From a virus (taxonomy: Duplodnaviria; Heunggongvirae; Uroviricota; Caudoviricetes), in IMG/VR virus record IMGVR_UViG_2565956613_000004, positions 1 through 14,224 of that record: DNA of 14,224 bases. The stretch is one strand, 5' to 3'. This document shows, piece by piece, positions 1-14,224 of the stretch; position 1 is the stretch's first letter; every line of letters begins with the position of its first letter. The position numbers were made by a program, and so were the translations under genes. The notes below the pieces were generated by a model, which saw only the letters and a program-made list of their open reading frames with translations, made no database searches and had not been told where the DNA came from.

Positions 1-63
1 CACGGTAGGAATTGTGATGGCGGCAGCACTGGGTTTGTATTCAATTTGTCGCTGGTGGTAACG

Positions 64-297
64 ATGGGAAAAATAACTTTTGTAGTCGAATTTGAGGATG
101 GCAAAGAGCCACCTGTTAGCGCCAATCTTGATGTTGCTGGTGGCAGGCTTGTTTCGGTTCTATTTGGTGACTACCGAGATGACTTCTTCCAACCAGAAGA
201 AGTTGATGTAGTGCGAGAGGCATTAAACGAGTTAAGTGTTGATAACGATGATGCTCATGCGGAAATCATCCAAAAAATGGAACTGCTAACTCACTAA
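64..297 (+). CDS. hypothetical small strongly acidic protein (77 aa from ATG 64; frame open from 46)
   Basis: ORF track 46..297; first ATG at 64 preceded by GGTGG Shine-Dalgarno-like motif; about 18 Asp/Glu versus 6 Lys/Arg; no recognisable family. Confidence 0.4.
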   Translation: MGKITFVVEFEDGKEPPVSANLDVAGGRLVSVLFGDYRDDFFQPEEVDVVREALNELSVDNDDAHAEIIQKMELLTH

Positions 298-475
298 ATT
301 ATCAATTATGGTGCTATCACCTACGACACCGAGAGAAAATTTATAATGTCAAAAGTAAATGTTTTGATTTTTTCAGCAATTGTTGGCTTTGGTTTTACTG
401 CCGGAGTGCAGATTTATATTACGTGGGAAAAAATCATCAACTACGCATGGAGTTGTTTTATTAAGTGAGGTAAGT

Positions 476-769
476 ATGTGGAGAGGTAATAGTCATGGCA
501 AAAGCCAGATGATACTTACCGAATATCAGTTTGACCATAAAACCAATAAATCACGTTCAGTATATTTGCTTCGGCACAATAGCCGCGTAAGGAATACCGT
601 GCTGGAGCAAAATCTGACTGTTGAAATAGATAATTACGGGGGCTTCAAGCCAACAATTTCGCTTGATGATTTTCCTCGTGGTTTAAGCGAAAGAGAAGCA
701 ATGCTGAAATTAGCAGAATGGCTACAAAGATTAAGCATTGCTATTGAAGATAACTGGTCTGAACCTTAA
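476..769 (+). CDS. hypothetical protein (97 aa from ATG 476)
   Basis: ORF track 380..769; in-frame ATG at 476 preceded by GAGGT 5 nt upstream; same strand and tight spacing with the following ORFs. Confidence 0.45.
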   Translation: MWRGNSHGKSQMILTEYQFDHKTNKSRSVYLLRHNSRVRNTVLEQNLTVEIDNYGGFKPTISLDDFPRGLSEREAMLKLAEWLQRLSIAIEDNWSEP

Positions 770-775
770 ATTTAT

Positions 776-1150
776 ATGATGACACTAAAACATTTTCTTG
801 ACCGCCCATTATGGGCGGCAGCCGCAGGCTATGACTTTAATTATATGGATTGCATGTCTTATACCGCCAATGCATACGACTATTCCTTCAGTCTGCTGCT
901 TAATTCTTTAAGAATATTGCCGCAAACAGAAGTTGGAGAGCTTCATTTATGGCTATTGGGCTTTATCGCGGCTGGAGTTGGTATTGCTGTATGGCCTTTT
1001 ATTTTCTGGCTGGTGGCTGTTGTAGTGTGGTTTAAGTGCAAGACGTACCGGAGAAAGTATTTCTTAGGTGATGGAATGACTGATATTGCCAAAATGAACA
1101 TTGAAAAATGGACTAAGGAATGTGAAAAGAAATGGCGCAAAAAGAAATGA
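776..1150 (+). CDS. hypothetical membrane protein (124 aa), one long hydrophobic helix and a Lys-rich C-terminus
   Basis: ORF track; hydrophobic stretch LWLLGFIAAGVGIAVWPFIFWLVAVVVWF; starts 6 nt after the previous stop and overlaps the next ORF by 19 nt. Confidence 0.5.
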   Translation: MMTLKHFLDRPLWAAAAGYDFNYMDCMSYTANAYDYSFSLLLNSLRILPQTEVGELHLWLLGFIAAGVGIAVWPFIFWLVAVVVWFKCKTYRRKYFLGDGMTDIAKMNIEKWTKECEKKWRKKK

Positions 1151-2064
1151 CCAGAATCACTGAAGAGCGTATATCAGAGATTATTTCCCGTATCGAAATG
1201 TATGGTCACGGTGCTGGATATACGGCAGATGAAGTATTGGCACTTGCCCAAATGGCTTTGGCGGCTTGCAAAGATGATAAAAAAATGAAGTTTATCGACT
1301 TGTTAGTGAAGGAACTGCCTAAGTGCGGCGGGTGGCCTGATGGAATGAGTTATTGTTACCTACCCAGTGTCAATTTAATGGCACCATGCGCGACTTTTGC
1401 TTTTGGCTCAGACCACAAAAAAGACACTTTCTTTGGGCGCAATTTTTGTTGTGAGATTGAGCTTCCAATTGGTGACCTTGATAGCGATGAATACCAGTCA
1501 GTTGTCACTCGCGAACAATACGAATCAGCTCTCATAGCGTCGCAGAAAGTCGAGTTCAATGGTGATGAACTTGAAAGTAAGACTTACAGGTTGGATTTTG
1601 GGCAATGGCTGGAACAGCAACGCGGGAAAATCGATGTGGACTGTGGTTGTGTGTCCACTGAAACATTCATGCACTGGCTGCGGGTAGCTTACGAGGCTGG
1701 CAACTATCCGGATATTCCGGATAGTTCGGTGCCAGCACCAGGAAAGGGCGTCACCGGTGAACGTATCCGAATTAAGCCGCATGTTTATCGCGAACTGGTT
1801 AACCGTCTCCACGATACAGCGATCAAGTGTGCTGGCACCCAGCAATTACGAGAAAGAATTAGCCGTGTTTTGGGCGACGTTATTACACCAGATCATCATA
1901 AACAAGCCGAGAAAAGTGGCCTGGAAAGGTGTCACCTTGAGGCGGCATTAAACATTAAGCCGGGGCATACGCTTGGCATTATTGATGCACTATTGGTTCA
2001 TAAGATGGCCAGGGCTTTATTGCCGCTGGTGGATGCTGGCGATACAAGCGAGGGTGAAGTATGA
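1132..2064 (+). CDS. hypothetical Cys-rich protein (310 aa)
   Basis: Longest ORF in the left block; several Cys pairs (FCCEIELP, DVDCGCVS); stop overlaps the next start (ATGA); no motif I recognise such as Walker A or HNH. Confidence 0.55.
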   Translation: MAQKEMTRITEERISEIISRIEMYGHGAGYTADEVLALAQMALAACKDDKKMKFIDLLVKELPKCGGWPDGMSYCYLPSVNLMAPCATFAFGSDHKKDTFFGRNFCCEIELPIGDLDSDEYQSVVTREQYESALIASQKVEFNGDELESKTYRLDFGQWLEQQRGKIDVDCGCVSTETFMHWLRVAYEAGNYPDIPDSSVPAPGKGVTGERIRIKPHVYRELVNRLHDTAIKCAGTQQLRERISRVLGDVITPDHHKQAEKSGLERCHLEAALNIKPGHTLGIIDALLVHKMARALLPLVDAGDTSEGEV

Positions 2065-2423
2065 GAGTTGCAGATCACATCAAACACCTTGAAAGAATTA
2101 TCGAAAACGGTGAACTCTTAAGAGATCAGATGAGACGCACGGCAGAAGTCAGAGAGGCGATAATCCGCAGTCAGGCTGGTAAATTAAAGCAATTATCAGA
2201 GATTAACGCGCTATACAAGAACAGACGTAACCGGGCGGCGCTGCGGCTTCAGAAAGCACGTAATGAAATTAAATTGGTGGAGGCAAAACTGAAAAAACAG
2301 ATTCAGCGTTACGATCAGCAAGATGCTTTTTATGCCGCCATCAAGGCGGCTGCTAATGAAATAGGCATCTGGAAGTTGCTGGTGGAGAAAGCAAAGACGA
2401 AGTTAAATGCCAACGAAAGCTGA
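2061..2423 (+). CDS. hypothetical charged, probably coiled-coil protein (120 aa)
   Basis: ATG overlaps the stop of the 310-aa ORF; composition rich in K/R/E/Q/A/L typical of coiled coil. Confidence 0.5.
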   Translation: MRVADHIKHLERIIENGELLRDQMRRTAEVREAIIRSQAGKLKQLSEINALYKNRRNRAALRLQKARNEIKLVEAKLKKQIQRYDQQDAFYAAIKAAANEIGIWKLLVEKAKTKLNANES

Positions 2424-2497
2424 ACTACAGGTACCCACCAGCACATACAGAAAATGATTGTTTCCACATCAAGGAGATTTTAATGTTTCACTGAACA

Positions 2498-2635
2498 TTA
2501 AGTAAGCCAGTGCATAATTCCATTTTTTACTGACCTTAAAAGCAAAATCAAAACGATGATGAGGATGATCGCCAGAATCTGGCTAATAACAGGCGCATCT
2601 AAAAATGCACTCAGGAACTGAAAAAAAGCAGTCAT
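2498..2635 (-). CDS. candidate small hydrophobic peptide (45 aa; MTAFFQFLSAFLDAPVISQILAIILIIVLILLLRSVKNGIMHWLT)
   Basis: Translated by hand from the minus strand (below the ORF-track length cutoff); ATG at 2635, TAA at 2498..2500; AGGAA about 10 nt upstream; one predicted transmembrane helix; convergent with the upstream operon. Confidence 0.3.
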   Translation of the reverse strand: MTAFFQFLSAFLDAPVISQILAIILIIVLILLLRSVKNGIMHWLT

Positions 2636-2670
2636 TAAGGTGGTTCCTTGTCAAATGTAAAGGAGCACTT

Positions 2671-2739
2671 GCTCACGTTGACGTAGAAACCCAACCCCTA
2701 TATAGTTGGATTCGGTGAAAGAAAGTCGTTAACGTGAGC
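2671..2739. repeat. nested inverted repeat: 13-bp arms GCTCACGTTGACG / CGTTAACGTGAGC (12 of 13) enclosing an inner CCAAC...GTTGG palindrome
   Basis: Read directly from the sequence; lies in the 660-bp non-coding gap immediately upstream (minus-strand sense) of the 45-aa ORF. Confidence 0.4.
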
Positions 2740-3084
2740 TTACGGCACATGTTTTCGGAACAACATCAGGGAACGGCTAATTCCTTGATGCGGATGGGGT
2801 CTGTAATGCAGACCCTATCTATTAACGTCATGATTGCATCTCAAATTTTCTCCTTATCTTCATTAATCAAAATTCATTTCATTTGTGAAACATCACAATA
2901 TTTAGAAAATGGCCCTCTTGCAAGTGCATAACTTTGTGGATAAATCAGGAAGAAAAAAGTTGATTCTGCGCACGGCAAGGCAGATAAGCTGTGCACAAAA
3001 ATCAATGGGAAAAGAAAAAAAATTAAAAGTTACTTTGCTGGTTAAATAATAGTCGTTACGCAATTGTTCTGGATGGGATTTGAT

Positions 3085-3336
3085 ATGCACGATTGGAATA
3101 TTGCAGCTAAAAGTCAGGAAGAACGGGATAAGGTTAACGTTGATCTGGCTGCCAGCGGTGTGGCGTACAAAGAGCGATTGAACATACCTGTCATAGCTGA
3201 ACAGGTAGCCCGCGAGCAACCAGAGAATCTGCGCACCTATTTCATGGAACGGTTACGGCACTATCGGCAGTTAAGCCTCCAGTTGCCAAAAGGGAGCGAT
3301 CCGGTGTATCAGAACGAGGATGCACCAAAAAAATAA
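3085..3336 (+). CDS. hot: Hot, homolog of DNA polymerase III theta subunit (HolE)
   Basis: Segment [43 protein letters not shown] aligns with E. coli HolE ([43 protein letters not shown]); start placed at the ATG giving MHDWNIAAK (ORF track opens at a TTG at 3064). Confidence 0.8.
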
Positions 3337-3421
3337 CGGCAAGATGGGGGAGAAATGTGATTAGCCCCCAGCGTGGCGCGCCTACAAACCCCGCTTTCAC
3401 AAACTATGCCTTTTCAATGTA

Positions 3422-3441
3422 TACTGTATGAATAAACAGTA
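3422..3441. promoter_or_regulatory. LexA (SOS) box TACTGTATGAATAAACAGTA overlapping a TATACT -10 element
   Basis: CTGT-N8-ACAG with flanking TA, about 17 of 20 matches to the consensus TACTGTATATATATACAGTA; sits 19 bp upstream of the humD start codon. Confidence 0.75.
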
Positions 3442-3459
3442 TCATTGAGGTAAAACGCT

Positions 3460-3849
3460 ATGGGCTTCCCTTCTCCTGCGGCGGATTATGTTGAAAGCCG
3501 AATTTCTCTTGATCAGCAGATAATTAGACATCCTTCAGCGACCTACTTCATGCGGGCAGCTGATAGCCATCACCGTGAGGGAATATTGCAGGGTGCTTTG
3601 CTGGTGGTTGATTCCTCGCTTACTCCGGTTGATGGTTCTCTGCTTGTGTGCGCTATGGAGGGTGAATATCGCATAAAGAGATACAGGAAGTATCCGCGCC
3701 AGCACCTGGAGGATTTAAGCACCGGGAAGAAAGAGGCGTTACCAGTAGATGACGATGGATACACGGGCAGTAATGCTGTTTTTGGTGTGATCACTCATGT
3801 CATCAATGATGCCCGAAGTGGGGAATTTGATGATTGTCCGGTTATTTAA
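3460..3849 (+). CDS. humD: HumD, UmuD'-like translesion-synthesis accessory protein encoded in the already-processed form
   Basis: N-terminus [30 protein letters not shown] matches UmuD' starting at Gly25 ([29 protein letters not shown]); FGVITHV matches UmuD FGVVIHV; GAGG RBS; LexA box upstream. Confidence 0.85.
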   Translation: [129 protein letters not shown]

Positions 3850-3884
3850 GCTGCAAAGTGCTGGTGCTTTATGCCTGTGAAGTT

Positions 3885-3915
3885 TATAATTGTGTACACA
3901 TAACGAGTACACGAG
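3885..3915 (+). promoter_or_regulatory. phd-doc promoter with palindromic autoregulatory operator (TATAAT followed by TGTGTACACA and GAGTACAC)
   Basis: TATAAT at 3885..3890; perfect 10-bp palindrome TGTGTACACA at 3891..3900 and a related GTACAC half-site just before the phd RBS, consistent with known Phd/Doc autorepression. Confidence 0.55.
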
Positions 3916-3921
3916 GTGTTT

Positions 3922-4143
3922 ATGCAATCCATTAACTTCCGTACCGCGCGTGGCAACCTTTCTGAAGTGCTCAACAATGTTGAAGCCGGGGAAGAGGTTG
4001 AAATCACCCGCAGAGGCCGTGAGCCAGCAGTAATTGTCAGCAAGGCTACTTTCGAAGCCTACAAAAAAGCGGCGCTGGATGCTGAATTTGCATCCCTGTT
4101 TGACACCCTGGACTCCACCAACAAGGAACTGGTTAACCGATAA
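3922..4143 (+). CDS. phd: Phd antitoxin (prevent host death), 73 aa
   Basis: [49 protein letters not shown]... recognised as P1 Phd; GAGG RBS before ATG 3922 (ORF track opens at an upstream GTG); stop overlaps the doc start (TAATG). Confidence 0.85.
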
Positions 4144-4523
4144 TGAGGCATATATCACCGGAAGAACTTATTGCGCTTCATGATGCGAATATAAGCCGCT
4201 ACGGCGGCCTGCCGGGAATGTCTGATCCGGGTAGGGCAGAGGCCATTATCGGGAGAGTTCAGGCCAGAGTTGCCTACGAAGAGATCACCGACCTTTTCGA
4301 AGTCTCCGCCACCTACCTGGTGGCTACAGCGAGAGGGCATATATTCAATGATGCCAATAAGCGTACCGCGCTAAACAGTGCGCTGCTATTTCTACGCCGT
4401 AACGGGGTGCAGGTATTTGATTCACCTGAACTGGCAGACCTTACTGTAGGCGCTGCGACTGGCGAGATATCTGTATCTTCTGTCGCCGACACGTTACGTA
4501 GATTGTATGGTTCTGCGGAGTAG
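4143..4523 (+). CDS. doc: Doc toxin (death on curing), Fic-fold kinase, 126 aa
   Basis: Fic-type motif [11 protein letters not shown]; size and position right after phd with a 1-nt overlap; sequence recognised as P1 Doc. Confidence 0.9.
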
Positions 4524-4527
4524 ATTA

Positions 4528-4707
4528 ATGGCACGCAAATACAACAAATTGTCCCGTGAAGCGTTAAAGATGCTTCTTGATGGCGCGAGTCGCCGCAAGG
4601 TAAAGCAATACCTGGTTGGTAAGCAAATTGGAGTCAGGACCGCTATTGCTGTGTTATGCCGTCAGGAAATGGTTGTGCTTAAACAGAGAATGCCGGGCAG
4701 CAGATAA
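4528..4707 (+). CDS. pdcA: small basic protein, PdcA-like (post-doc), 59 aa from ATG 4528
   Basis: ORF track 4507..4707; the ATG at 4528 lies 5 nt after the doc stop with GGAG 8 nt upstream; assignment as pdcA is by position in the P1 gene order as I recall it. Confidence 0.45.
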   Translation: MARKYNKLSREALKMLLDGASRRKVKQYLVGKQIGVRTAIAVLCRQEMVVLKQRMPGSR

Positions 4708-4734
4708 AGCCCAATCAGTGATTAAAGGTGTGAT

Positions 4735-5778
4735 GTGAAAGCCGTAATTACTCCCTTTGTACAGAAAGAGCTTGGCCTCGCCACGTTCAAAGTGGATCAG
4801 GAGGTCAGAAAGCTGGTGGAGGCTGGCCGTAAATTTATTATGGAGCCGGTGCCGCGTGAGTTAATCGAGCACATGGAAGACGGCCTCGTTGTTACCGAGC
4901 AAACCATGGCAACAAATGAGGCGTTGCAGCCGTTTTTTAACAGCGATGAACTGTTTCGCCGTATTGGTGGAATTGACGCGCTGGTGGCGTGGTTGCGTAG
5001 GAAAGAGGGTCAATGCCAGGCCGCAGATCGTAGTTGGTGTGACAACCATATTGTCCACGCTGAACGAGACAATAGCGCGGTGTTGTTGTGCTGGCATCAC
5101 GATAACCATTACCGGATGCGTGGTTTTAATGAGCTGAAAGAAACGCTGCACAATAATCGCGTTAACTGGATACTGGATGTCGCCCGTCAGGAAATGGGCC
5201 TTTCAAATAGCCATGATTTAAGTATTCAGGAGCTGTGCTGGTGGGCTTTCATGCGCAACATGATGCACCTGATGCCGGAAGAAGTCTGCCGCATATCAAT
5301 AAATAAGATGAAGGCTACTCCGCAGGATAGCGGACCTCTGAAAGAGGCGGATATTCGCCCGTATGACGATCGCGCTACAGCATATGTTCAGATGATGGAA
5401 GAACGCGCCGCGCCGATGCGTGCAAAAGTATGCCCTGTGGATGTTGACGCCGACCCTGGCATGGCGCATTTCAAAATACCAAAACTTCAATCGCTAAAAT
5501 TGCCCGAGTACATGGATTTTGTGGCTTCCCGTCCATGCTGTGGCTGTGGAGCTGCGGGAGCTGGCGCTCACATTACGCCTTATATCGTTCGTCATAGTCG
5601 ATTATGCGCGCATGACATTTATGCTGTTCCTCTGTGCCAGTCATGCCAGCGTGATATTGAGCGTGACCGCGATAATTGGGAGAAGACGCACGGTAGGCTG
5701 GCGATGCATCAACGATTGTTCTTTGATTACGCGCTTGGAGTCGGCGCTATCACAAGTCATTCGTCGAGCGTTAGATAA
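4735..5778 (+). CDS. pdcB: PdcB-like protein with two Cys/His-rich putative zinc-binding clusters, 347 aa
   Basis: GTG start with AAGGTG 4 nt upstream; clusters [25 protein letters not shown] and CCGCG...H...C.HD...PLCQSCQ suggest a zinc-finger or HNH-like nucleic-acid-binding fold; name from recalled P1 gene order. Confidence 0.65.
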
Positions 5779-5779
5779 A

Positions 5780-5796
5780 ATTGCTCTAATGTATTG
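5780..5796 (+). promoter_or_regulatory. C1 repressor operator-like site ATTGCTCTAATGTATTG upstream of lpa
   Basis: 13 of 17 match to the P1 C1 operator consensus ATTGCTCTAATAAATTT; lpa is known to be C1-controlled in P1. Confidence 0.6.
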
Positions 5797-5866
5797 CTAT
5801 TTCTTTAATCGAGGGTATTATATTCGACGTTGATTAGTTGACATGGGCTAATCAGTAGGTGACAGG

Positions 5867-6319
5867 ATGTTACTTAACTGGCAGGGACGCCACTTCATGG
5901 AAATAAATCACTCACGAATAACATCGTACGAGATTGCGGATTACATGATCCGCACTAAATCTCTTCTATCAGCGAAAGATCTCGCAGCAATTCTTGAAAA
6001 GGAATACCCGCATCTGGATGTCGATAAGCGCGATGTTTATCTGCGCTTAAAGGCTATCGCTGTGTCTAAGTATTCGTCTGTTTTGATTGATGACAGTACA
6101 CGCCCACGTAGATTTCAGATCCACTCTCTGAATCCTGAATTCTTTCGCCGCAGCCGCGCTCCGCGCCGGTTTGATGAAAAACTCCAGAACGAACTCTATA
6201 TGACGCAGGACGAAAAGGAACGCCGGGAGCACCAGCCTTGGGTGATGGCGCGTCAACTTTTCAATAAGGTGGTCCGTCAGCACCGTCATTACGGTAATGC
6301 CACATCCGCACGTATCTGA
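5867..6319 (+). CDS. lpa: Lpa, late promoter activator (gp10)
   Basis: 150-aa ORF with AGGTGA RBS, located between pdcB and pacA behind a C1 operator as in P1; sequence recalled as P1 Lpa, less certain than cre or c1. Confidence 0.65.
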   Translation: MLLNWQGRHFMEINHSRITSYEIADYMIRTKSLLSAKDLAAILEKEYPHLDVDKRDVYLRLKAIAVSKYSSVLIDDSTRPRRFQIHSLNPEFFRRSRAPRRFDEKLQNELYMTQDEKERREHQPWVMARQLFNKVVRQHRHYGNATSARI

Positions 6320-6405
6320 TTGATTGCTTGCCCGTTCCGGGCCTTTTGACATGTGACTTTCGTTACCCTCGCGTCAAAAAGAGTTTTATACGAAAGGAAG
6401 CATAA

Positions 6406-7599
6406 GTGACCTGGGACGATCACAAGAAGAATTTTGCTCGCCTGGCGCGAGATGGTGGTTACACCATCGCACAATATGCCGCCGAGTTTAATCTCAACCC
6501 AAACACCGCACGTCGTTATCTCCGTGCATTCAAAGAAGACACCGGAACAGCGGACAGCCGTAAGCCAAATAAGCCTGTCAGAAAACCACTAAAAAGCATG
6601 ATCATTGATCACGCTAATGATCAACGTGCAGGTGATCACATTGTGGCTGAAATGGCTGAAAAACAAAGAGTTAATGCTGTTGTCAGTGCCGCAGTCGAGA
6701 ACGCGAAGCGCCAGAATAAGCGCATAAATGATCGTTCTGATGATCATGACGTGATCACCCGCGCCCACCGGACCTTACGTGATCGCCTGGAACGCGACAC
6801 CCTGGATGATGATGGTGAACGCTTTGAATTCGAAGCTGGCGATTACCTGATAGATAACGTTGAAGCGCGGAAGGCCGCGCGCGCTATGTTGCGTCGGTCC
6901 GGGGCCGATGTTCTGGAAACCACTCTTCTGGAAAAGTCTCTTTCTCATCTCCTTATGCTGGAGAACGCCAGGGATACGTGTATTCGCCTGGTGCAGGAAA
7001 TGCGCGATCAGCAAAAAGACGATGATGAAGGTACTCCGCCTGAATACCGTATCGCGAGCATGCTAAACAGCTGTTCCGCGCAGATAAGCAGCCTGATCAA
7101 CACCATTTACAGCATCCGGAATAACTATCGAAAAGAAAGCCGGGAGGCGGAAAAGCACGCTTTGTCTATGGGGCAAGCTGGCATTGTTAAGCTGGCATAC
7201 GAACGAAAGCGTGAAAATAACTGGTCAGTGCTGGAAGCAGCTGAATTCATCGAGGCGCATGGCGGGAAAGTGCCGCCCCTGATGCTGGAGCAAATCAAAG
7301 CCGATCTGCGTGCTCCTAAGACCAATACCGATGATGAGGAAAGGCAAACAGCCGTCGGTGGCCCTTCTCTTGAAGATCTGGACAAAGTTGCGCGAGAACG
7401 GGCCGCCAACCGCCGCGCCGATGCCGCATTGTGGATTGAGCAGCGTAGGGAAGAAATCGCCGATATCGTTGATACAGGCGGTTATGGAGATGTTGATACT
7501 GAAGGTGTATCAAACGACCCATGGCTGGAACAAGACCTGGACGAAGACGAGGAGGAAGACGAAGAAGTTACCCGCAAGCTATACGGGGATGATGATTAA
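6406..7599 (+). CDS. pacA: PacA, terminase small (pac-recognition) subunit, 397 aa
   Basis: GTG start with AAGGAAG RBS; contains the pac hexamer clusters internally; acidic C-terminal tail ([11 protein letters not shown]); stop overlaps the pacB start. Confidence 0.9.
6599..6757. other. pac packaging site: four TGATCA hexamers (6599, 6606, 6618, 6633) and three TGATC(A/G) hexamers (6729, 6741, 6752) flanking the cleavage region
   Basis: Hexamers read directly from the sequence; the 4 + 3 arrangement over about 160 bp inside pacA matches the known Dam-methylation-sensitive P1 pac site. Confidence 0.8.
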
Positions 7600-9083
7600 T
7601 GGCCAGAAGTTGCGTAACGGATCCACGTTGGCGCGAGCTGGTGGCGCTATATCGTTATGACTGGATTGCGGCCGCTGATGTTTTGTTCGGCAAAACACCT
7701 ACCTGGCAGCAGGATCTGATTATTGAGTCTGTGCAGGAACAGGGTAGCAAGACATCTGTTTCGTCTGGTCACGGTACCGGGAAATCAGACATGACTTCTA
7801 TCATGATCATGTTGTTCATAATCATGTATCCAGGTGCCCGTGCCATTATCGTTGCGAACAAAATTCAGCAGGTAATGACCGGTATATTCAAGTACATCAA
7901 GATAAACTGGGCTACTGCCACCAGCCGTTTCCCATGGCTTGCTGATTATTTTGTTCTGACAGAAACCGCTTTCTATGAGATTACTGGTAAAGGTGTATGG
8001 ACTGTAGTACCGAAGGGCTTTCGTCTGGGAAGTGAAGAAGCTCTCGCCGGTGAACACGCAGATCATCTTCTGTATATTATCGATGAAGCCTCCGGTGTCA
8101 GTGATAGAGCTTTCGGTATCATCACCGGTGCTCTTACCGGACAGGATAACCGCATCTTATTGCTGTCACAGCCTACACGCCCAAGCGGCTATTTCTACGA
8201 TACACACCATAAACTGGCCAAGCGTCCTGGTAACCCTGATGGCGTTTATACGGCGATCACGCTTAACAGTGAGGAATCACCGTTGGTAACGCCAGCATTT
8301 ATCAAAATGAAGCTGGCGGAGTACGGCGGGCGTGATAACCCTATGTACATGATTAAGGTACGCGGCCTATTCCCTAAATCACAGGATGGCTTCCTTCTTG
8401 GACGTGATGAGGTTGAACGTGCAACGCGGCGGAAAGTCAAGATTGCAAAAGGATGGGGCTGGCTTGCATGTGTGGACGTTGCTGGTGGTACGGGACGGGA
8501 TAAGTCCGTTATCAATATCATGATGGTGTCCGGCCAGCGAAATAAACGCCGTGTAATCAACTATCGAATGCTGGAATACACAGACGTTACAGAAACGCAG
8601 CTTGCCGCCAAAATTTTCGCAGAATGTAATCCTGAGCGATTCCCAAATATCACCATAGCGATAGACGGCGATGGCCTGGGTAAAGCAACGGCGGATCTGA
8701 TGTACGAGTATTATGGTATTACCGTACAGCGTATACGCTGGGGTAAAAAGATGCATAGCCGTGAAGATAAGAGCCTGTACTTTGATAAACGTGCTTATGC
8801 CAACGTTCAAGCCGCAGAGGCCGTAAAATCTGGTCGTATGAGACTGGATAAGGGTAATGAAACTATTGAGGAAGCGTCGAAAATCCCTGTAGGGATTAAC
8901 TCCGCAGGTCAATGGAAGGTGATGAGTAAGGAGGATATGAAGAAAAAACTCAACCTGCACTCACCAGACCATTGGGATACATATTGTTTCGCTATGCTGG
9001 CTGATTATGTTCCCCAGGATGAAGTGCTTAGCGTCGAAGACGAAGCGCAGGTTGATGAAGCTCTGGCATGGCTTAATGAATAA
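7599..9083 (+). CDS. pacB: PacB, terminase large subunit, 494 aa
   Basis: P-loop-like [10 protein letters not shown] near the N-terminus; ATG overlaps the pacA stop (TAATG); size and position as for P1 PacB. Confidence 0.9.
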
Positions 9084-9107
9084 CTCATTGACCATGCCGG
9101 ATAGAAA

Positions 9108-9959
9108 CTATTGCGCGCTTTCGGGGTTGTCGTTTACTGGCTGCCCCTTCTTAGTTTTACGGCTGCGCGTAACTGATGCGGCTGATTTGACCTTTTTCTC
9201 TTCGCGAGTGATGGCAATTTGTTTTTTTACATTTTCAATATCTGCCAGGCGATATATTTTTGCCTGCGGCCAGCGGTCGCAGATGATCGGTTCTATAGAG
9301 TCATAAAGGCTAAATTTTGCTTTCTCGAATTCACCGTTGATGATGATTCCATCACGGAGAGTTTCATCGCAGATAAACACACCACACAGCGGCACATGGT
9401 AACTAACTGATTTACCATCATTGTAGTTAGGGCTACTGGAAATGTAGTGGACGCGCAGCATTGTTTCGCTAAAGCCGTGTACACGCATACGGAATTTTTC
9501 ATCCTCCGGGTACTGCTTCATTAGCTCTTTTGTTGCTTCCAGGTTCTCTATGTATTTCGCACTGTGCTCATTGATCCCCGCGCTTTTCTGGATGCGAATG
9601 TCCTTATCAATCAGATGAATAATGCGGCCAGCGGTCATGTTGACGCTGTTCACAGCTTCTGTCTGATAAGTCGTAACCTTACGCACACCGCGAAGGATGT
9701 TAGGCACAGGATATAAAATAGTCTTTGGGATATTGAGGTCTGGGTACTGTTCCAGTTCCCGCGCCATTAAAGTCCATTTATCAATTTCAGCCTGAATGCT
9801 GTCCGTTTCTTTGAACGGTAGAACGACAACCGGGCGTACAGGACGACCGTCGCTGGCGGCATCAACGTGTTGGGCGCGTGCAACAGCTTTTTTTAGAAAG
9901 AGATCCCTGAAGCTGACGAACTCCTGGTACAGTTGTTCGCCGTAGACATAATTTATCAT
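9108..9959 (-). CDS. c1: C1 repressor of lysis (primary immunity repressor), 283 aa
   Basis: 283-aa protein beginning MINYVYGEQLYQEFVSFRDLF recognised as P1 C1; GGAGGAGGA RBS; preceded by coi and operator sites; matching operators occur elsewhere in the window. Confidence 0.9.
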   Translation of the reverse strand: MINYVYGEQLYQEFVSFRDLFLKKAVARAQHVDAASDGRPVRPVVVLPFKETDSIQAEIDKWTLMARELEQYPDLNIPKTILYPVPNILRGVRKVTTYQTEAVNSVNMTAGRIIHLIDKDIRIQKSAGINEHSAKYIENLEATKELMKQYPEDEKFRMRVHGFSETMLRVHYISSSPNYNDGKSVSYHVPLCGVFICDETLRDGIIINGEFEKAKFSLYDSIEPIICDRWPQAKIYRLADIENVKKQIAITREEKKVKSAASVTRSRKTKKGQPVNDNPESAQ

Positions 9960-9981
9960 TGATCCTCCTCCAGAATTGACA

Positions 9982-10024
9982 TGGCCAACAACTCACAGCG
10001 GATTACACTGGGAGTTGTTGGCCA
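9982..10024. repeat. perfect 13-bp inverted repeat TGGCCAACAACTC / GAGTTGTTGGCCA with a 17-nt loop, between coi and c1
   Basis: Read directly; lies in the coi-c1 intercistronic region just upstream of the c1 RBS; no T-run follows on either strand. Confidence 0.4.
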
Positions 10025-10069
10025 CCATTATAGAAGGATCCAACGAAAATAATAGATTTATTAGTGCAT

Positions 10070-10279
10070 TTATTGTGAGTCTGGCTGGTTAGTGGCCATG
10101 AGATATTCGATTGTGTCAGTGAGATCATCCAGGTCGTCTTGGGTGATGCGGTACTCCTGATTGGATATCTTTGAGTAGTGTTCAGCAATGGCGCGGGCAG
10201 CGTCGGTTTCGGCAGGGTCTACAGATAAAGCGTTAGAGCAATGTCTAACGTCGTCGATGGTTGGTGGAATGAAAGCCAT
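10070..10279 (-). CDS. coi: Coi, C1 inactivator, 69 aa
   Basis: 69-aa ORF directly upstream of c1 on the same strand, downstream of operator sites; size and sequence recalled as P1 Coi. Confidence 0.8.
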   Translation of the reverse strand: MAFIPPTIDDVRHCSNALSVDPAETDAARAIAEHYSKISNQEYRITQDDLDDLTDTIEYLMATNQPDSQ

Positions 10280-10517
10280 AATTATGCCTCACTGTATTGA
10301 CAACACAGAGCCTGAAGCTCTGACCTACTGTTTCACCCATGATCCATGCTGGGGTAATCTAACAACATTGCGCTGTGTGTAAGATGAGCAATGCATAGCT
10401 GTAATGCCGTTGTATAAGGTTTCCCTGTTTGCTCATTTCCTTCTGAGCCGCTCTACAACGCTGAAGACACATTAAATAGTGAATCCAAAGTCGTATTACG
10501 AAACGGCGGCAAAACTA

Positions 10518-10534
10518 TAATTTATTAGAGCAAT
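10518..10534 (-). promoter_or_regulatory. C1 operator (Op99-type), minus-strand sense ATTGCTCTAATAAATTA
   Basis: 16 of 17 match to the C1 operator consensus; about 240 bp upstream of the coi start. Confidence 0.65.
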
Positions 10535-10600
10535 TGTCAAACAACTATGAAAAACAATCCAGTTTTTGGCTGGTGGAGTGGGATTTTTCTCTCAAAATTT

Positions 10601-10617
10601 ATTGCTCTAATAATTCT
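10601..10617 (+). promoter_or_regulatory. C1 operator (Op99-type) ATTGCTCTAATAATTCT
   Basis: 14 of 17 match to consensus; opposite orientation to the site at 10518, in the coi/c1 control region. Confidence 0.6.
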
Positions 10618-10729
10618 TGATTTTTATGCGCAGCTGGACGTAAACTCCTCTTCGGGCCCTTAAGGGTTATTGAACATGATTAATTTACCTGTAAATCCAT
10701 ACAGTTCAATACCTTATCAGGTCAAATAG

Positions 10730-10751
10730 TGATCACTTGATCATTTGATCA
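10730..10751. promoter_or_regulatory. three TGATCA (Dam GATC) hexamers phased 8 bp apart in the cre upstream region
   Basis: TGATCActTGATCAttTGATCA read directly; a Dam-regulated cre promoter is described for P1 (recalled). Confidence 0.5.
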
Positions 10752-10756
10752 AGGTT

Positions 10757-10815
10757 GCGCTACGTAAAATCTGCGAAATGTTGGCAGTGTTAGTGCTCCA
10801 GATTTCGCGTAGCGC
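10757..10815. repeat. imperfect 17-bp inverted repeat GCGCTACGTAAAATCTG ... CAGATTTCGCGTAGCGC (15 of 17), 25-bp spacer
   Basis: Read directly; ends about 30 bp upstream of the RBS of the 73-aa ORF; no T-run, so more likely a protein-binding site or RNA structure than a terminator. Confidence 0.4.
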
Positions 10816-10847
10816 ACTTAGCACCACCAATCAATCAGAGGTGAAAA

Positions 10848-11069
10848 ATGGGATATTCAGCTGCTAAAGTGTCCACTCATATTGAGCTTGAGAAAAACCG
10901 TGGTTACTGGCGGGCAAAAGGGTTTGATCGTGATAGTTGTCAACTGTCATTATCGCGCGGTGAAGAGAAAATAGAACGCACGCGCGGTCGCTGGCGTTTC
11001 TATGACGAGAACCATAAACAGGTAAAGGCAGAGCCGATCCTGTACACTTTACTTAAAACCATTATCTGA
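10848..11069 (+). CDS. hypothetical 73-aa protein immediately upstream of cre
   Basis: ATG with AGAGGTG RBS at optimal spacing; stop 7 nt before the cre ATG, suggesting co-transcription; no recognisable family. Confidence 0.45.
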   Translation: MGYSAAKVSTHIELEKNRGYWRAKGFDRDSCQLSLSRGEEKIERTRGRWRFYDENHKQVKAEPILYTLLKTII

Positions 11070-11076
11070 GTGTTAA

Positions 11077-12108
11077 ATGTCCAATTTACTGACCGTACAC
11101 CAAAATTTGCCTGCATTACCGGTCGATGCAACGAGTGATGAGGTTCGCAAGAACCTGATGGACATGTTCAGGGATCGCCAGGCGTTTTCTGAGCATACCT
11201 GGAAAATGCTTCTGTCCGTTTGCCGGTCGTGGGCGGCATGGTGCAAGTTGAATAACCGGAAATGGTTTCCCGCAGAACCTGAAGATGTTCGCGATTATCT
11301 TCTATATCTTCAGGCGCGCGGTCTGGCAGTAAAAACTATCCAGCAACATTTGGGCCAGCTAAACATGCTTCATCGTCGGTCCGGGCTGCCACGACCAAGT
11401 GACAGTAATGCTGTTTCACTGGTCATGCGACGGATCCGAAAAGAAAACGTTGATGCCGGTGAACGTGCAAAACAGGCACTGGCGTTCGAACGCACTGATT
11501 TCGACCAGGTTCGTTCACTCATGGAAAATAGCGATCGCTGCCAGGATATACGTAATCTGGCATTTCTGGGGATTGCTTATAACACCCTGTTACGTATAGC
11601 CGAAATTTCCAGGATCAGGGTTAAAGATATCTCACGTACTGACGGTGGGAGAATGTTAATCCATATTGGCAGAACGAAAACGCTGGTTAGCACCGCTGGT
11701 GTAGAGAAGGCACTTAGCCTGGGGGTAACTAAACTGGTTGAGCGATGGATTTCTGTCTCTGGTGTAGCTGATGATCCGAATAACTACCTGTTTTGCCGCG
11801 TCAGAAAAAATGGTGTTGCCGCTCCATCATCCACCAGCCAGCTATCAACTCGCGCCCTGGAAGGGATTTTTGAAGCAACTCACCGATTGATTTACGGGGC
11901 AAAAGATGACTCTGGTCAGCGATACCTGGCCTGGTCTGGACATAGTGCCCGTGTCGGTGCCGCGCGAGATATGGCCCGAGCCGGAGTTTCTATACCGGAG
12001 ATCATGCAAGCTGGTGGCTGGACCAACGTAAATATTGTCATGAACTACATTCGTAACCTGGATAGTGAAACGGGGGCAATGGTGCGCCTGCTGGAAGATG
12101 GCGATTAG
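11077..12108 (+). CDS. cre: Cre tyrosine site-specific recombinase, 343 aa
   Basis: Near-identical to P1 Cre as I recall it (MSNLLTVHQNLPALPVDATSDEVRKNLMDMFRDRQAFSEHTWKMLLSVCRSWAAWCK...); C-terminal catalytic region with HSARVGAARDMARAG and GGWTNVNIVMNYIRNLDSE; differs from my recalled P1 sequence at two positions (IAEISRIRV, APSSTSQ). Confidence 0.97.
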   Translation: MSNLLTVHQNLPALPVDATSDEVRKNLMDMFRDRQAFSEHTWKMLLSVCRSWAAWCKLNNRKWFPAEPEDVRDYLLYLQARGLAVKTIQQHLGQLNMLHRRSGLPRPSDSNAVSLVMRRIRKENVDAGERAKQALAFERTDFDQVRSLMENSDRCQDIRNLAFLGIAYNTLLRIAEISRIRVKDISRTDGGRMLIHIGRTKTLVSTAGVEKALSLGVTKLVERWISVSGVADDPNNYLFCRVRKNGVAAPSSTSQLSTRALEGIFEATHRLIYGAKDDSGQRYLAWSGHSARVGAARDMARAGVSIPEIMQAGGWTNVNIVMNYIRNLDSETGAMVRLLEDGD

Positions 12109-12125
12109 CCGTTCATTTGCTCTTT

Positions 12126-12142
12126 ATTGCTCTAATTATTTG
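12126..12142 (+). promoter_or_regulatory. C1 operator-like site ATTGCTCTAATTATTTG with a partial copy (ATTTGCTCT) just upstream
   Basis: 14 of 17 match to consensus; 18 bp after the cre stop and 17 bp before the 103-aa ORF; resembles the Op2 arrangement that controls ref in P1. Confidence 0.55.
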
Positions 12143-12158
12143 ATATTTATGGTTACAC

Positions 12159-12470
12159 ATGCGGAAGGATTTCAAAATAGACGGAAAATATGTGGTGCTG
12201 TCTGTAAGCTCTCAAATTCAGTCACCATCTGTCATTGTCACCGTAAAGTTGAGCGATAGGATGCCTGATATCGACTCGATATCTGTTGCGTTCCCCGTTA
12301 AAAGCATGCGGAGTGCTGAACATTTTGTGATGAATGCAACGGAGGAGGAAGCACGGCGCGGGCTTACTAGAGTGATGGCGGAATTTGGCGAACTCCTGGG
12401 TAAGGTAAACAATGCCCTTTCAATCAGTTCAGCAAGATCCAAAGCGTTAACAGCTTCCATGATGAAATAA
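12159..12470 (+). CDS. hypothetical 103-aa protein behind a C1 operator (no Cys, one His)
   Basis: ORF track; ends immediately before the hairpin at 12476..12496; weak RBS; preferred over the overlapping minus-strand ORF, which needs a TTG start and spans the hairpin. Confidence 0.4.
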   Translation: MRKDFKIDGKYVVLSVSSQIQSPSVIVTVKLSDRMPDIDSISVAFPVKSMRSAEHFVMNATEEEARRGLTRVMAEFGELLGKVNNALSISSARSKALTASMMK

Positions 12471-12475
12471 AAAAA

Positions 12476-12496
12476 AGCCTGGCAAGGAGCCAGGCT
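12476..12496 (-). terminator. rho-independent terminator for the minus-strand antirepressor-like transcript (stem AGCCTGGC / GCCAGGCT, loop AAGGA, U-run on the minus strand)
   Basis: Plus strand reads A8-GCCTGGC-AAGGA-GCCAGGC; on the minus strand the hairpin is followed by a T8 run; on the plus strand no T-run follows. Confidence 0.5.
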
Positions 12497-12618
12497 GCAC
12501 AAAAGAGCGGGGTTGTATTCCGCATCCAATCAATCAAGAAGGAGTATAGCACACAGGTACTGAAGAGAAAAAATGTGATTCGCGATAGATAAAATAGCCA
12601 CTATTGTTATAATTAATT

Positions 12619-12699
12619 GCCATAATTGAGTTATGGCTTTAGTCAACTACGAAGACATTGCCATTATAGACTCCGTGACATCATTGGCGGCCGAAAGGC
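12619..12699 (+). ncRNA. candidate ~80-nt small RNA: extended -10 promoter (TGTTATAAT at 12605..12613), 5' hairpin GCCATAA-TTGAG-TTATGGC, 3' intrinsic terminator
   Basis: All elements read directly; no convincing ORF (the 72-aa ORF 12633..12851 runs through the terminator); complementary to the 3' UTR of the convergent minus-strand mRNA. Not tested. Confidence 0.2.
12676..12699 (+). terminator. strong rho-independent terminator on the plus strand (GGCGGCC-GAAA-GGCCGCC followed by TTTTTT)
   Basis: Perfect 7-bp GC stem with GAAA tetraloop and a T6 run, read directly; ends the cre-side transcription unit and/or a short transcript from the promoter at 12605..12613. Confidence 0.7.
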
Positions 12700-12711
12700 C
12701 GCCTTTTTTAA

Positions 12712-13770
12712 TCATTCAGCCGCCACCGGTTTTAACAAGCCAGCATCGAGCAGTTTACGCGTCAACCACTGTTGGCCTTTCCCCGTTAATTGAGGCGTCA
12801 GCCGTATCTGATAGCCATCTTCATCATCCAGCACCACTTCTTTCACTGTGAAATATCCGGCGTTTATGTACTGCTGAAACGGTACATTTTTACGTCCGCC
12901 GGACGCAATCAGGATGCCGTTCTCCCGTAACCAGGTAAACAACGCGTTTTGCTTAAGCCCAACAACCTTTGCAAAATTTCCAATCAGGATCCCCTTGGCC
13001 CCTGATACCCGGTCGGCAAAATCGACTTTAGGGGCGGCGGCCACCAGCTGCTGATTTAGCTGGTGGGCTTTCTGTTCCAGAAGTTGCTTTTGTTCAGCCA
13101 GCTCGGCAGCCAGGCGCAGAGCTTCGGGGAGTGTTTGGGGAATCACTGGAGAAGCAGTGCTAGCCTGCTGCAATTCCTCCAGTTTGTCGATCAGCGAACG
13201 GCGGACCGCTTTTGACTCGCGCGCGGCAACTCTCAGGGCTTGTTTGTAGGTCATGGAGATAGTTTCAGATGTTGTGTTGTTTAATTTTTGCACTACGAAA
13301 ATTTCGTAGTACTCACCATCCAGTTCATCCTTAACTCTGGCAATAAAATCATTATTGCGAACTGGTTTTTCGCTACATAATTTCCGCGCTTCATTGACCA
13401 TCTTTAACAGCGTCTGGCTGTCGATTGTGTCTCCGGTGTTGGGGATAGCATCCATGGCCGTTGCTGGTGTGGTTGCTGTCAAAGGCTTTGTAACGACAAC
13501 ATCTGGTTTGCTTGCTTTCATTCTGTGTGCCTCCTTGCGTGTTTCGGCTGCGACGGTTGCGTAATTCAGATGCCCCTGTTCGAGCAGGTATTCGCGAATA
13601 TCAGACAGCAGGATACGGTGAACCGCGTTCTTGTCCTTTCTCCGGTAAAGTTGTTTGGTGATCATGAAGTAGTTGGCAATAACACCCGGTATATCCCTGG
13701 TACTGATACAGGCAGTGTGCTGTTCAATTGCCTCAATCATCTCTTCACGGGTGACTAATGACGTTCTCAT
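12712..13770 (-). CDS. antirepressor-like protein with a C-terminal KilA-C/ANT-type domain, 352 aa
   Basis: Strong GGAGGG RBS 4 nt before the ATG; C-terminal segment FADRVSGAKGILIGNFAKVVGLKQNALFTWLRENGIL...NVPFQQYINAGYFTVKEV...TPQLTGKGQQWL resembles phage antirepressor C-terminal (KilA-C/ANT) domains; the N-terminal ~80 aa may be Rha-like, which is uncertain. Confidence 0.75.
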   Translation of the reverse strand: MRTSLVTREEMIEAIEQHTACISTRDIPGVIANYFMITKQLYRRKDKNAVHRILLSDIREYLLEQGHLNYATVAAETRKEAHRMKASKPDVVVTKPLTATTPATAMDAIPNTGDTIDSQTLLKMVNEARKLCSEKPVRNNDFIARVKDELDGEYYEIFVVQKLNNTTSETISMTYKQALRVAARESKAVRRSLIDKLEELQQASTASPVIPQTLPEALRLAAELAEQKQLLEQKAHQLNQQLVAAAPKVDFADRVSGAKGILIGNFAKVVGLKQNALFTWLRENGILIASGGRKNVPFQQYINAGYFTVKEVVLDDEDGYQIRLTPQLTGKGQQWLTRKLLDAGLLKPVAAE

Positions 13771-13988
13771 AGTCCCTCCTGAGCAGAAGCGTTAACAGGG
13801 AGGCACCAGTAACTGAGAGAATTGCGCGAATCGGTAGAAAAACGGGCGGAGAAAATGCAGGGAGCATCCGGAAGCTGAGAACGTGCCTCATCTTCTGTTG
13901 GTGCGATAACGAAGTGATAGTGACGTTTTTGACAAGAATAGAAGCGCCAGATGAATTCAGGGCGTGCGCAAGGATTGGCATTAACCAT
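13767..13988 (-). CDS. possible 73-aa ORF upstream of and overlapping (ATGA) the antirepressor-like gene
   Basis: ORF track; GAGG 9 nt upstream of the ATG; the stop overlapping the downstream ATG is forced by the frame, so support is weak. Confidence 0.25.
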   Translation of the reverse strand: MVNANPCARPEFIWRFYSCQKRHYHFVIAPTEDEARSQLPDAPCIFSARFSTDSRNSLSYWCLPVNASAQEGL

Positions 13989-14224
13989 AGTTACGGCCTC
14001 ACTAACAGGTTTAACAACCTGCTACCCGCTGCTAAACAGGTGGCAGGACGTGACGGGGTTAGCAGACTGGCGTTAGTGAAACCAGCAGGCCGAAGCCTCC
14101 CCATCACGCCCCACCATAATTTGGGCGTAACGCGGTTTTACGGACACAAAAATACCGCAATATCGGATATCTGCGGTTGTCCACACTAACATTCAGGCTG
14201 CTAAACCCGGTCGCAGAATTTGCT

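Follow-up and report, generated by a model that had tools for sequence, protein, structure and literature searches.

The window analysed here, a stretch of 14,224 nucleotides from the IMG/VR virus record IMGVR_UViG_2565956613_000004, carries beside cre a second, complete copy of the immI operon of phage P1, consisting of a C4 antisense RNA, Icd and Ant1/Ant2, at the place where a preliminary description of the same DNA had seen an extra antirepressor. A megablast search of phage genomes aligned positions 12728–14224 at approximately 80% DNA identity with c4-icd-ant1/2 of P1, P7 and their relatives. Judging from the sequence, we consider it probable, with good confidence, that this module is a complete second immI of the P1/P7 kind on a P1-like phage-plasmid, that it has taken the place of ref, that it is regulated by a C4 RNA of its own, and that it adds an immunity specificity to the element. 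The module represents a known type of operon at an unusual, already recorded location, not a new type of regulator, and its most likely role would be to provide a second antirepressor under independent antisense control, together with a second immunity specificity.

The module genes are homologues of icd and ant1/ant2

The larger gene of the module, ant1 (12712–13770, minus strand), encodes a 352-aa antirepressor that is homologous to P1 Ant1/Ant2 over its full length, with 73% identity to P1 Ant1 from end to end, and its ATG is preceded at 5 nt by the strong ribosome-binding site AGGAGG. The only family found to cover the entire protein is PHROG phrog_63, 'anti-repressor Ant' (9.8e-117, aa 1–352); the NCBIfam search assigned no family to it. 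A KilAC domain was detected at aa 240–341 with Pfam ANT/KilAC (PF03374), scoring 109 bits against a cut-off of 25.3 (E=1.6e-31), whereas for the N-terminal 240 aa Pfam returned nothing but a sub-threshold chance match. Ant1 consists of three parts, namely an N-terminal Ant1-specific extension, a central domain (aa 115–202) and the KilAC domain. Nested in frame within ant1 is ant2 (12712–13521, minus strand; 269 aa), which begins at M84; its ATG (13519–13521) aligns with the annotated start of P1 ant2, matching the position of M84 in P1 Ant1, and has an AAGGAGG Shine-Dalgarno sequence 8 nt upstream. Two products, Ant1 and the nested Ant2, are predicted from this arrangement.

The smaller gene, icd (13767–13988, minus strand), encodes the 73-aa cell-division inhibitor, with 82% identity to P1 Icd and matches to phrog_1426 (6.9e-47) and to NCBIfam NF033153 (phage_ICD_like). 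It overlaps ant1 by the four bases ATGA, an overlap that would couple icd translation to that of ant1.

At the level of reading frames, these results agree with the preliminary description, which had reported, convergent to cre, a 352-aa ORF with a KilA-C/ANT-type C-terminal domain and a strong ribosome-binding site, possibly preceded by an overlapping 73-aa ORF; both ORFs converge on cre and c8. It had, however, set the protein apart from the known immI genes, a view contradicted by the identities to Ant1 and Icd and by the C4 RNA encoded upstream, and the span that it gave (12712–13988) takes in both ORFs but omits the upstream part of the operon, that is, C4 and target sites reaching to 14204.

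C4 RNA, target sites and transcript ends

Upstream of icd lies a c4 antisense RNA gene (14036–14121, minus strand), which matches Rfam RF01695 over the full model (1–87) at 70 bits (gathering score 45; E=3.2e-12). Motif searches placed its b' element, TCACTAAC, in a hairpin loop (14072–14079, minus strand) and its a' element, CTGCTAA, in a single-stranded segment (14059–14065, minus strand). In the c4 leader, we found an a1 target, TTAGCAG, of P7 type (14198–14204, minus strand), which is the exact complement of a' and aligns with the annotated P1 a1, along with a b1 target, GTTAGTG, of P1 type (14184–14190, minus strand), recognised by its complementarity to b'. The icd-ant mRNA likewise carries an a2 target, TTAGCAG (14029–14035, minus strand), and a b2 target, GTTAGTGA (13999–14006, minus strand), which are exact complements of a' and b' and align with the annotated P1 a2 and b2; b2 overlaps the icd Shine-Dalgarno sequence GAGG (13997–14000). 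Within the window module, all three copies of the a element agree with one another, as do those of the b element. The Rfam c4-a1b1 element (RF03163) was found at the equivalent spot in pB19429_2, a plasmid with 99.9% identity across the module; in the window, this element crosses the window end.

The promoters and the C1 operator of the module would lie just past the window end; in pB19429_2, a P51b-like promoter (TTGATC/TATAGT) and an Op51-like C1 operator, GTTGCTCTAATAAATTT, occupy the places of P1 P51b and Op51, corresponding to 85–100 bp beyond the last position of the window. On the opposite side, a terminator-like hairpin with a T-run (12476–12496, minus strand), found by a terminator scan as a consensus match only, follows right after the c8 stop and is a candidate for the end of the c4-icd-ant transcript.

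A C1-operator-like site, ATTGCTCTAATTATTTG, with 3 mismatches is present at 12126–12142 (plus strand), where the 3' end of cre adjoins the start of the region before c8; among the P1 record rows listed, none annotated a C1 operator at this place. Further C1-operator-like sites occur at 5780, 10054, 10518 and 10601; such sites are expected in the vicinity of lpa and c1/coi.

The module replaces ref between c8 and mat

In P1 and many P1-like plasmids, such as pNord122_1, the gene order is cre-c8-ref-mat, followed by variable defence cargo. The window retains the first part of this backbone, comprising cre (11077–12108, plus strand; Pfam Phage_integrase, 2.8e-32), the 103-aa backbone gene c8 (12159–12470, plus strand; P1 c8 annotation and phrog_1968), which is convergent with the module and 92.8% identical in DNA to phiW39 c8, and the c8-ref intergenic region (12471–12709, plus strand), as seen in alignments with P1 and the module-less pNord122_1. 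Backbone homology stops at 12709, 2 nt short of the ant stop codon (12712–12714), and many plasmids that are more than 99% identical to window positions 1–12709 diverge thereafter. On the far side, relatives carry the mat operator and then mat. Because the backbone ends beside the ant stop and the mat operator and mat follow on the other side, the module replaces the ref ORF exactly.

This is not the map position of P1 immI, which lies between sim and kilA-repL; the window module instead occupies the c8/mat interval, runs convergently with cre-c8, and is not followed by kilA-repL. Map position is a feature of how P1 is laid out, not of how the operon works. The preliminary description was right that P1 has no antirepressor gene here, and the comparison of gene order that it proposed recovered the cre-c8-module-mat layout in at least 56 PLSDB plasmids and 53 complete E. 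coli genomes. In PLSDB, roughly 800 P1-like plasmids matched this region.

Traces of ref control are still visible ahead of the replaced gene. The Oref operator is represented by a degenerate relic at about 12602–12618 (plus strand), where P1 ATTGCTCTAATTGATTG corresponds to window ATTGTTATAATTAATTG, more than 3 mismatches from the C1 operator consensus. Within the ref promoter relic (12586–12709, plus strand), the former Oref now contains an extended −10 element, TGTTATAAT, as part of a promoter-like TAGATA-16-TATAAT, and about 75 nt downstream of this match stands a strong hairpin followed by six T residues (GGCGGCCGAAAGGCCGCC-TTTTTT; 12686–12709, plus strand), which in P1 precedes the ref start codon. 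This relic could give rise to a short orphan transcript of approximately 90 nt, or could simply shield ant from convergent transcription.

Related plasmids carry further modules at other sites

All eight complete module-bearing plasmids that were checked (p779-3 and seven others from E. coli, E. fergusonii and E. albertii) also have a second module of immI type at the normal site, adjacent to kilA-repL, with ant intact in seven of them; in these relatives, the cre-side antirepressor is an extra one, as had been supposed. The best whole-window match, p779-3 (97.6%), carries the cre-side module together with a normal c4-icd-ant-kilA-repL region, and each of its two modules has its own C4 and a1b1 element. 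In pB19429_2, a third module is located between pacB and c1; the window lacks a module at that place, as pacB ends at 9083 and c1 starts at 9108.

Modules at these positions have been recorded before. Venturini et al. 2019 (PMC6906374) reported 'homologs of P1 icd-ant1/2' in the res-mod region (RD-1) of pSvP1, extra genes of immI type that lie, like the window module, in the variable region following cre-c8, and an ant insertion between pacB and c1 in pTZ20_1P/RCS47. Unlike the present analysis, that paper lists the pSvP1 genes only, and C4 RNA, code and the relation to the normal immI are undescribed there. A second c4/icd region has also been noted for a D6-like plasmid. Many sequenced plasmids contain the cre-side module, and it has been mentioned in print; our literature search found no functional study of it.

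The loss or modification of immI in pSvP1 goes with the presence of the res-mod icd-ant1/2 homologues (Venturini et al. 2019, PMC6906374), which raises the question of whether the window module is a substitute and not an addition: the normal immI of the source element, a locus outside the window, might have been lost or broken, making the cre-side module its only working c4-icd-ant. Such a case is illustrated by pHYEC7-mcr1 (NZ_KX518745.1; 1769–3798 and 48157–48854), in which IS1 interrupts the normal-site ant and the cre-side module is intact. Against this explanation stand the retention of the kilA-repL-adjacent module in every one of the eight plasmids and the presence of both modules in p779-3, the best whole-window match, and we regard substitution as unlikely. 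Like the other explanations weighed below, it is less likely than a second immI.

In pHYEC7-mcr1, another IS1 lies immediately upstream of the cre-side c4, and mcr-1/ISApl1 cargo is found in the same variable region, beyond mat.

Divergence, domain composition and selection

All normal-site Ants are at least 90% identical to P1 Ant1. The cre-side Ants are consistently divergent and form two groups, one of 352-aa proteins, including that of the window, with 73–77% identity to P1 Ant1, and another of 370-aa proteins with 55–57%. In the window protein, most of the 27% divergence from P1 Ant1 falls in the N-terminal part and in the central domain; relative to its P1/P7 counterparts, the protein has an insertion of 7 aa, and its central segment is of Stx-phage type. 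This segment (aa 115–202; window 13165–13428, minus strand) matches the N-terminal domain of the 244-aa 'antirepressor' proteins found in Stx2a-converting lambdoid phages, with an identity of 91% for DNA and 93% for protein; the C-terminal domain of these phage proteins is unlike that of Ant. This match shows Ant to be a domain mosaic, the result of domain shuffling between lambdoid and P1-like antirepressors.

Given its 27% divergence from P1 Ant1, the target of the cre-side Ant could differ. The protein might accordingly hit the repressor of a co-resident lambdoid or Stx prophage, or a divergent repressor of P1/D6 type, and so act as an inducer across elements, as the Stx2a-phage-like central domain and the consistent divergence of cre-side Ants would suggest. 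We consider this quite improbable, since the KilAC domain and the overall architecture, at 73% identity from end to end, are those of P1 Ant1/Ant2, and the C1 operator kept by the module in pB19429_2 places it in the C1 regulon. Under the second-immI explanation, by analogy with P1, the Ant1/Ant2 of the module are predicted to bind and inactivate C1.

The dN/dS ratio is 0.03–0.12 for icd and 0.11–0.19 for ant, and dS is approximately 1 for the module compared both with P1 and with the co-resident normal-site copy (p779-3 normal-site ant); from the low dN/dS and this dS, the module is an old paralogue that has been kept under purifying selection. We also considered whether the resident immI had been duplicated recently and rejected this on the same dS values. 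That the module is a functionless leftover of recombination between P1-like elements, as its position in the mosaic hot-spot RD-1 with highly variable cargo (Venturini et al. 2019, PMC6906374) might suggest, is barely credible in view of ORFs that are intact in dozens of plasmids, dN/dS of 0.03–0.19, co-variation of all three copies of both RNA sites, conserved ribosome-binding sites, and an operator conserved in pB19429_2.

The C4 recognition code is a hybrid of P1 and P7

The a and b sites of the window module combine two known codes. In P1 immI, the P1-type a-site TTGACAG goes with the P1-type b-site GTTAGTGA, and in P7 immI the P7-type a-site TTAGCAG goes with the P7-type b-site GATTGTGA, whereas the cre-side code of the window pairs the P7-type TTAGCAG with the P1-type GTTAGTGA. 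The two modules of p779-3 show other combinations, the cre-side code consisting of a P7-type a-site and a third type of b-site, GTACATG, and the normal-site code of a P1-type a-site and a P7-type b-site.

A pattern scan of IMG/VR yielded 96 C4 loci, among which each of two a types is found with each of three common b types, giving six combinations. At 94 of these loci there was enough flanking sequence for the target sites to be checked, and in 93 of the 94 the local C4 is exactly complementary to a1, b1, a2 and b2. Since the target sites co-vary with the local C4 in this manner, there is strong support for selection on the RNA-RNA pairing. Further b variants were seen at one IMG/VR locus (L072) and in plasmids. 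This locus (IMGVR_UViG_2675903633_000003), with a rare b type (TTGAA), is the sole one in which b2 does not match the C4 b' element, and it may represent a decaying or escaping module.

The code of the window is also present at normal sites (for example, loci L010 and L056) and is therefore not specific to the cre side. Near-identical Ants were found with differing C4 codes, so the code and the Ant protein recombine independently. Our literature search returned no description of hybrid or combinatorial C4 codes; an earlier one may exist.

In the 16 elements with two or three modules, no identical codes were found between co-residents (16/16), and some co-resident pairs have one of the two sites in common. 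Selection against identical co-resident codes was considered as a cause and dropped. A pooled null gives about 0.21 identical codes per random pair, under which 0 of 16 would seem significant; a site-aware estimate, made by hand from the listed codes, gives about 0.5 identical pairs expected, against which 0 of 16 is not statistically significant. Codes at the cre side, mostly with b=ATGTA, are largely distinct from those at the normal site, mostly with b=ACAAT, and the missing identical pairs are for this reason not evidence of selection.

At 12 other IMG/VR loci (L007, L008, L013, L015, L024, L029, L034, L053, L059, L064, L088 and L089), a P1-type C4 with matching a and b sites is followed by icd and then by an unrelated protein of about 235 aa (16–20% identity to Ant); neither kilA nor cre/c8 was detected at these loci in the 1.2 kb screened downstream. 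The C4-icd control cassette appears to be re-used ahead of other effector genes in other elements.

Proposed mechanism and relation to known systems

In the established biology of P1, immI is controlled by C4, and Ant acts against the C1 repressor. By this scheme, a leftward transcript from the P51b-like promoter of the module would contain a1/b1, the C4 RNA, a2/b2, icd, and ant1 with the nested ant2. Processed C4 would pair with a2/b2 and block the translation of icd, and through translational coupling and polarity this block would extend to ant. Where C4 is absent or mismatched, Ant1/Ant2 would be made and the C1 repressor inactivated. We infer that the module is regulated independently of the normal-site immI, because co-resident codes differ in all 16 elements. 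In a prophage, the second C4 would then silence incoming phages of the same code and broaden immunity; in an incoming phage, the second Ant would escape a resident's non-matching C4 and so bypass immunity. The earlier suggestion that the module could modulate immunity or act on another resident element is plausible.

More tentatively, and with less than even confidence, C4 and its targets could be read as a two-part antisense address, an a-site combined with a b-site, in which the parts recombine freely and modules are stacked in an RNA-coded immunity arms race. If so, two a-types and three or more b-types would provide at least 6–8 immunity codes, and one element could hold as many as three c4-icd-ant modules, all differing in code, at three fixed positions: adjacent to kilA-repL, beside cre in place of ref, and between pacB and c1. 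In an arms race among incompatible plasmid prophages, an extra module would both widen the immunity of the resident and escape that of its rivals. P1/P7 heteroimmunity is the classic case of an immunity specificity set by antisense RNA. Natural P1-like phage-plasmids commonly carry resistance genes in E. coli, and they often have more than one C4 module, with recombinant codes. If the modules are independent, sets of C4 codes would help to predict exclusion, tolerance and induction among P1-like elements, which matters for how mcr-1 and ESBL phage-plasmids spread, and the modules would also supply a small natural collection of orthogonal RNA repressor/target pairs.

The window module resembles P1/P7 immI in its gene order and overlaps, in a C4 RNA with a' and b' elements facing a1/b1 and a2/b2, in the position of b2 over the icd Shine-Dalgarno sequence, and in a 73-aa Icd and nested Ant1/Ant2; in the near-identical pB19429_2, a C1 operator is also seen upstream. 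In addition to its location and the changes in Ant, it is unlike them in its recombinant code, with a of P7 and b of P1. The immI region of Salmonella phage P22 combines ant, the repressors Mnt and Arc, and an antisense RNA, sar. Like the window module, it is a second immunity region with an antirepressor that is silent in the lysogen, partly by means of antisense RNA, but its control proteins and RNA are unrelated, it has no icd, and its antirepressor belongs to a different family.

A more distant variant is present in pB19429_2, where two divergent antirepressor modules, L001 (8445–10040, plus strand) and L104 (7145–8718, minus strand), lie between pacB and c1 and at the normal site. Each comprises isrK (RF01394), C4 (RF01695), an 'ash family' ORF call overlapping the RNA, an icd-like gene and ant; the IsrK locus of Gifsy-1 in Salmonella is reportedly an antirepressor module of this isrK-C4 type. 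As in the window module, an antisense RNA of the C4 clan is encoded upstream of icd-like and ant genes. The isrK loop carries an a1-type complement of the local C4 and co-varies with it, TTGAGA facing an a' of TCTCAA in one module and TTGGAA facing TTCCAA in the other. Their C4 and leader are much more divergent, whereas the window module is of the classical P1/P7 type.
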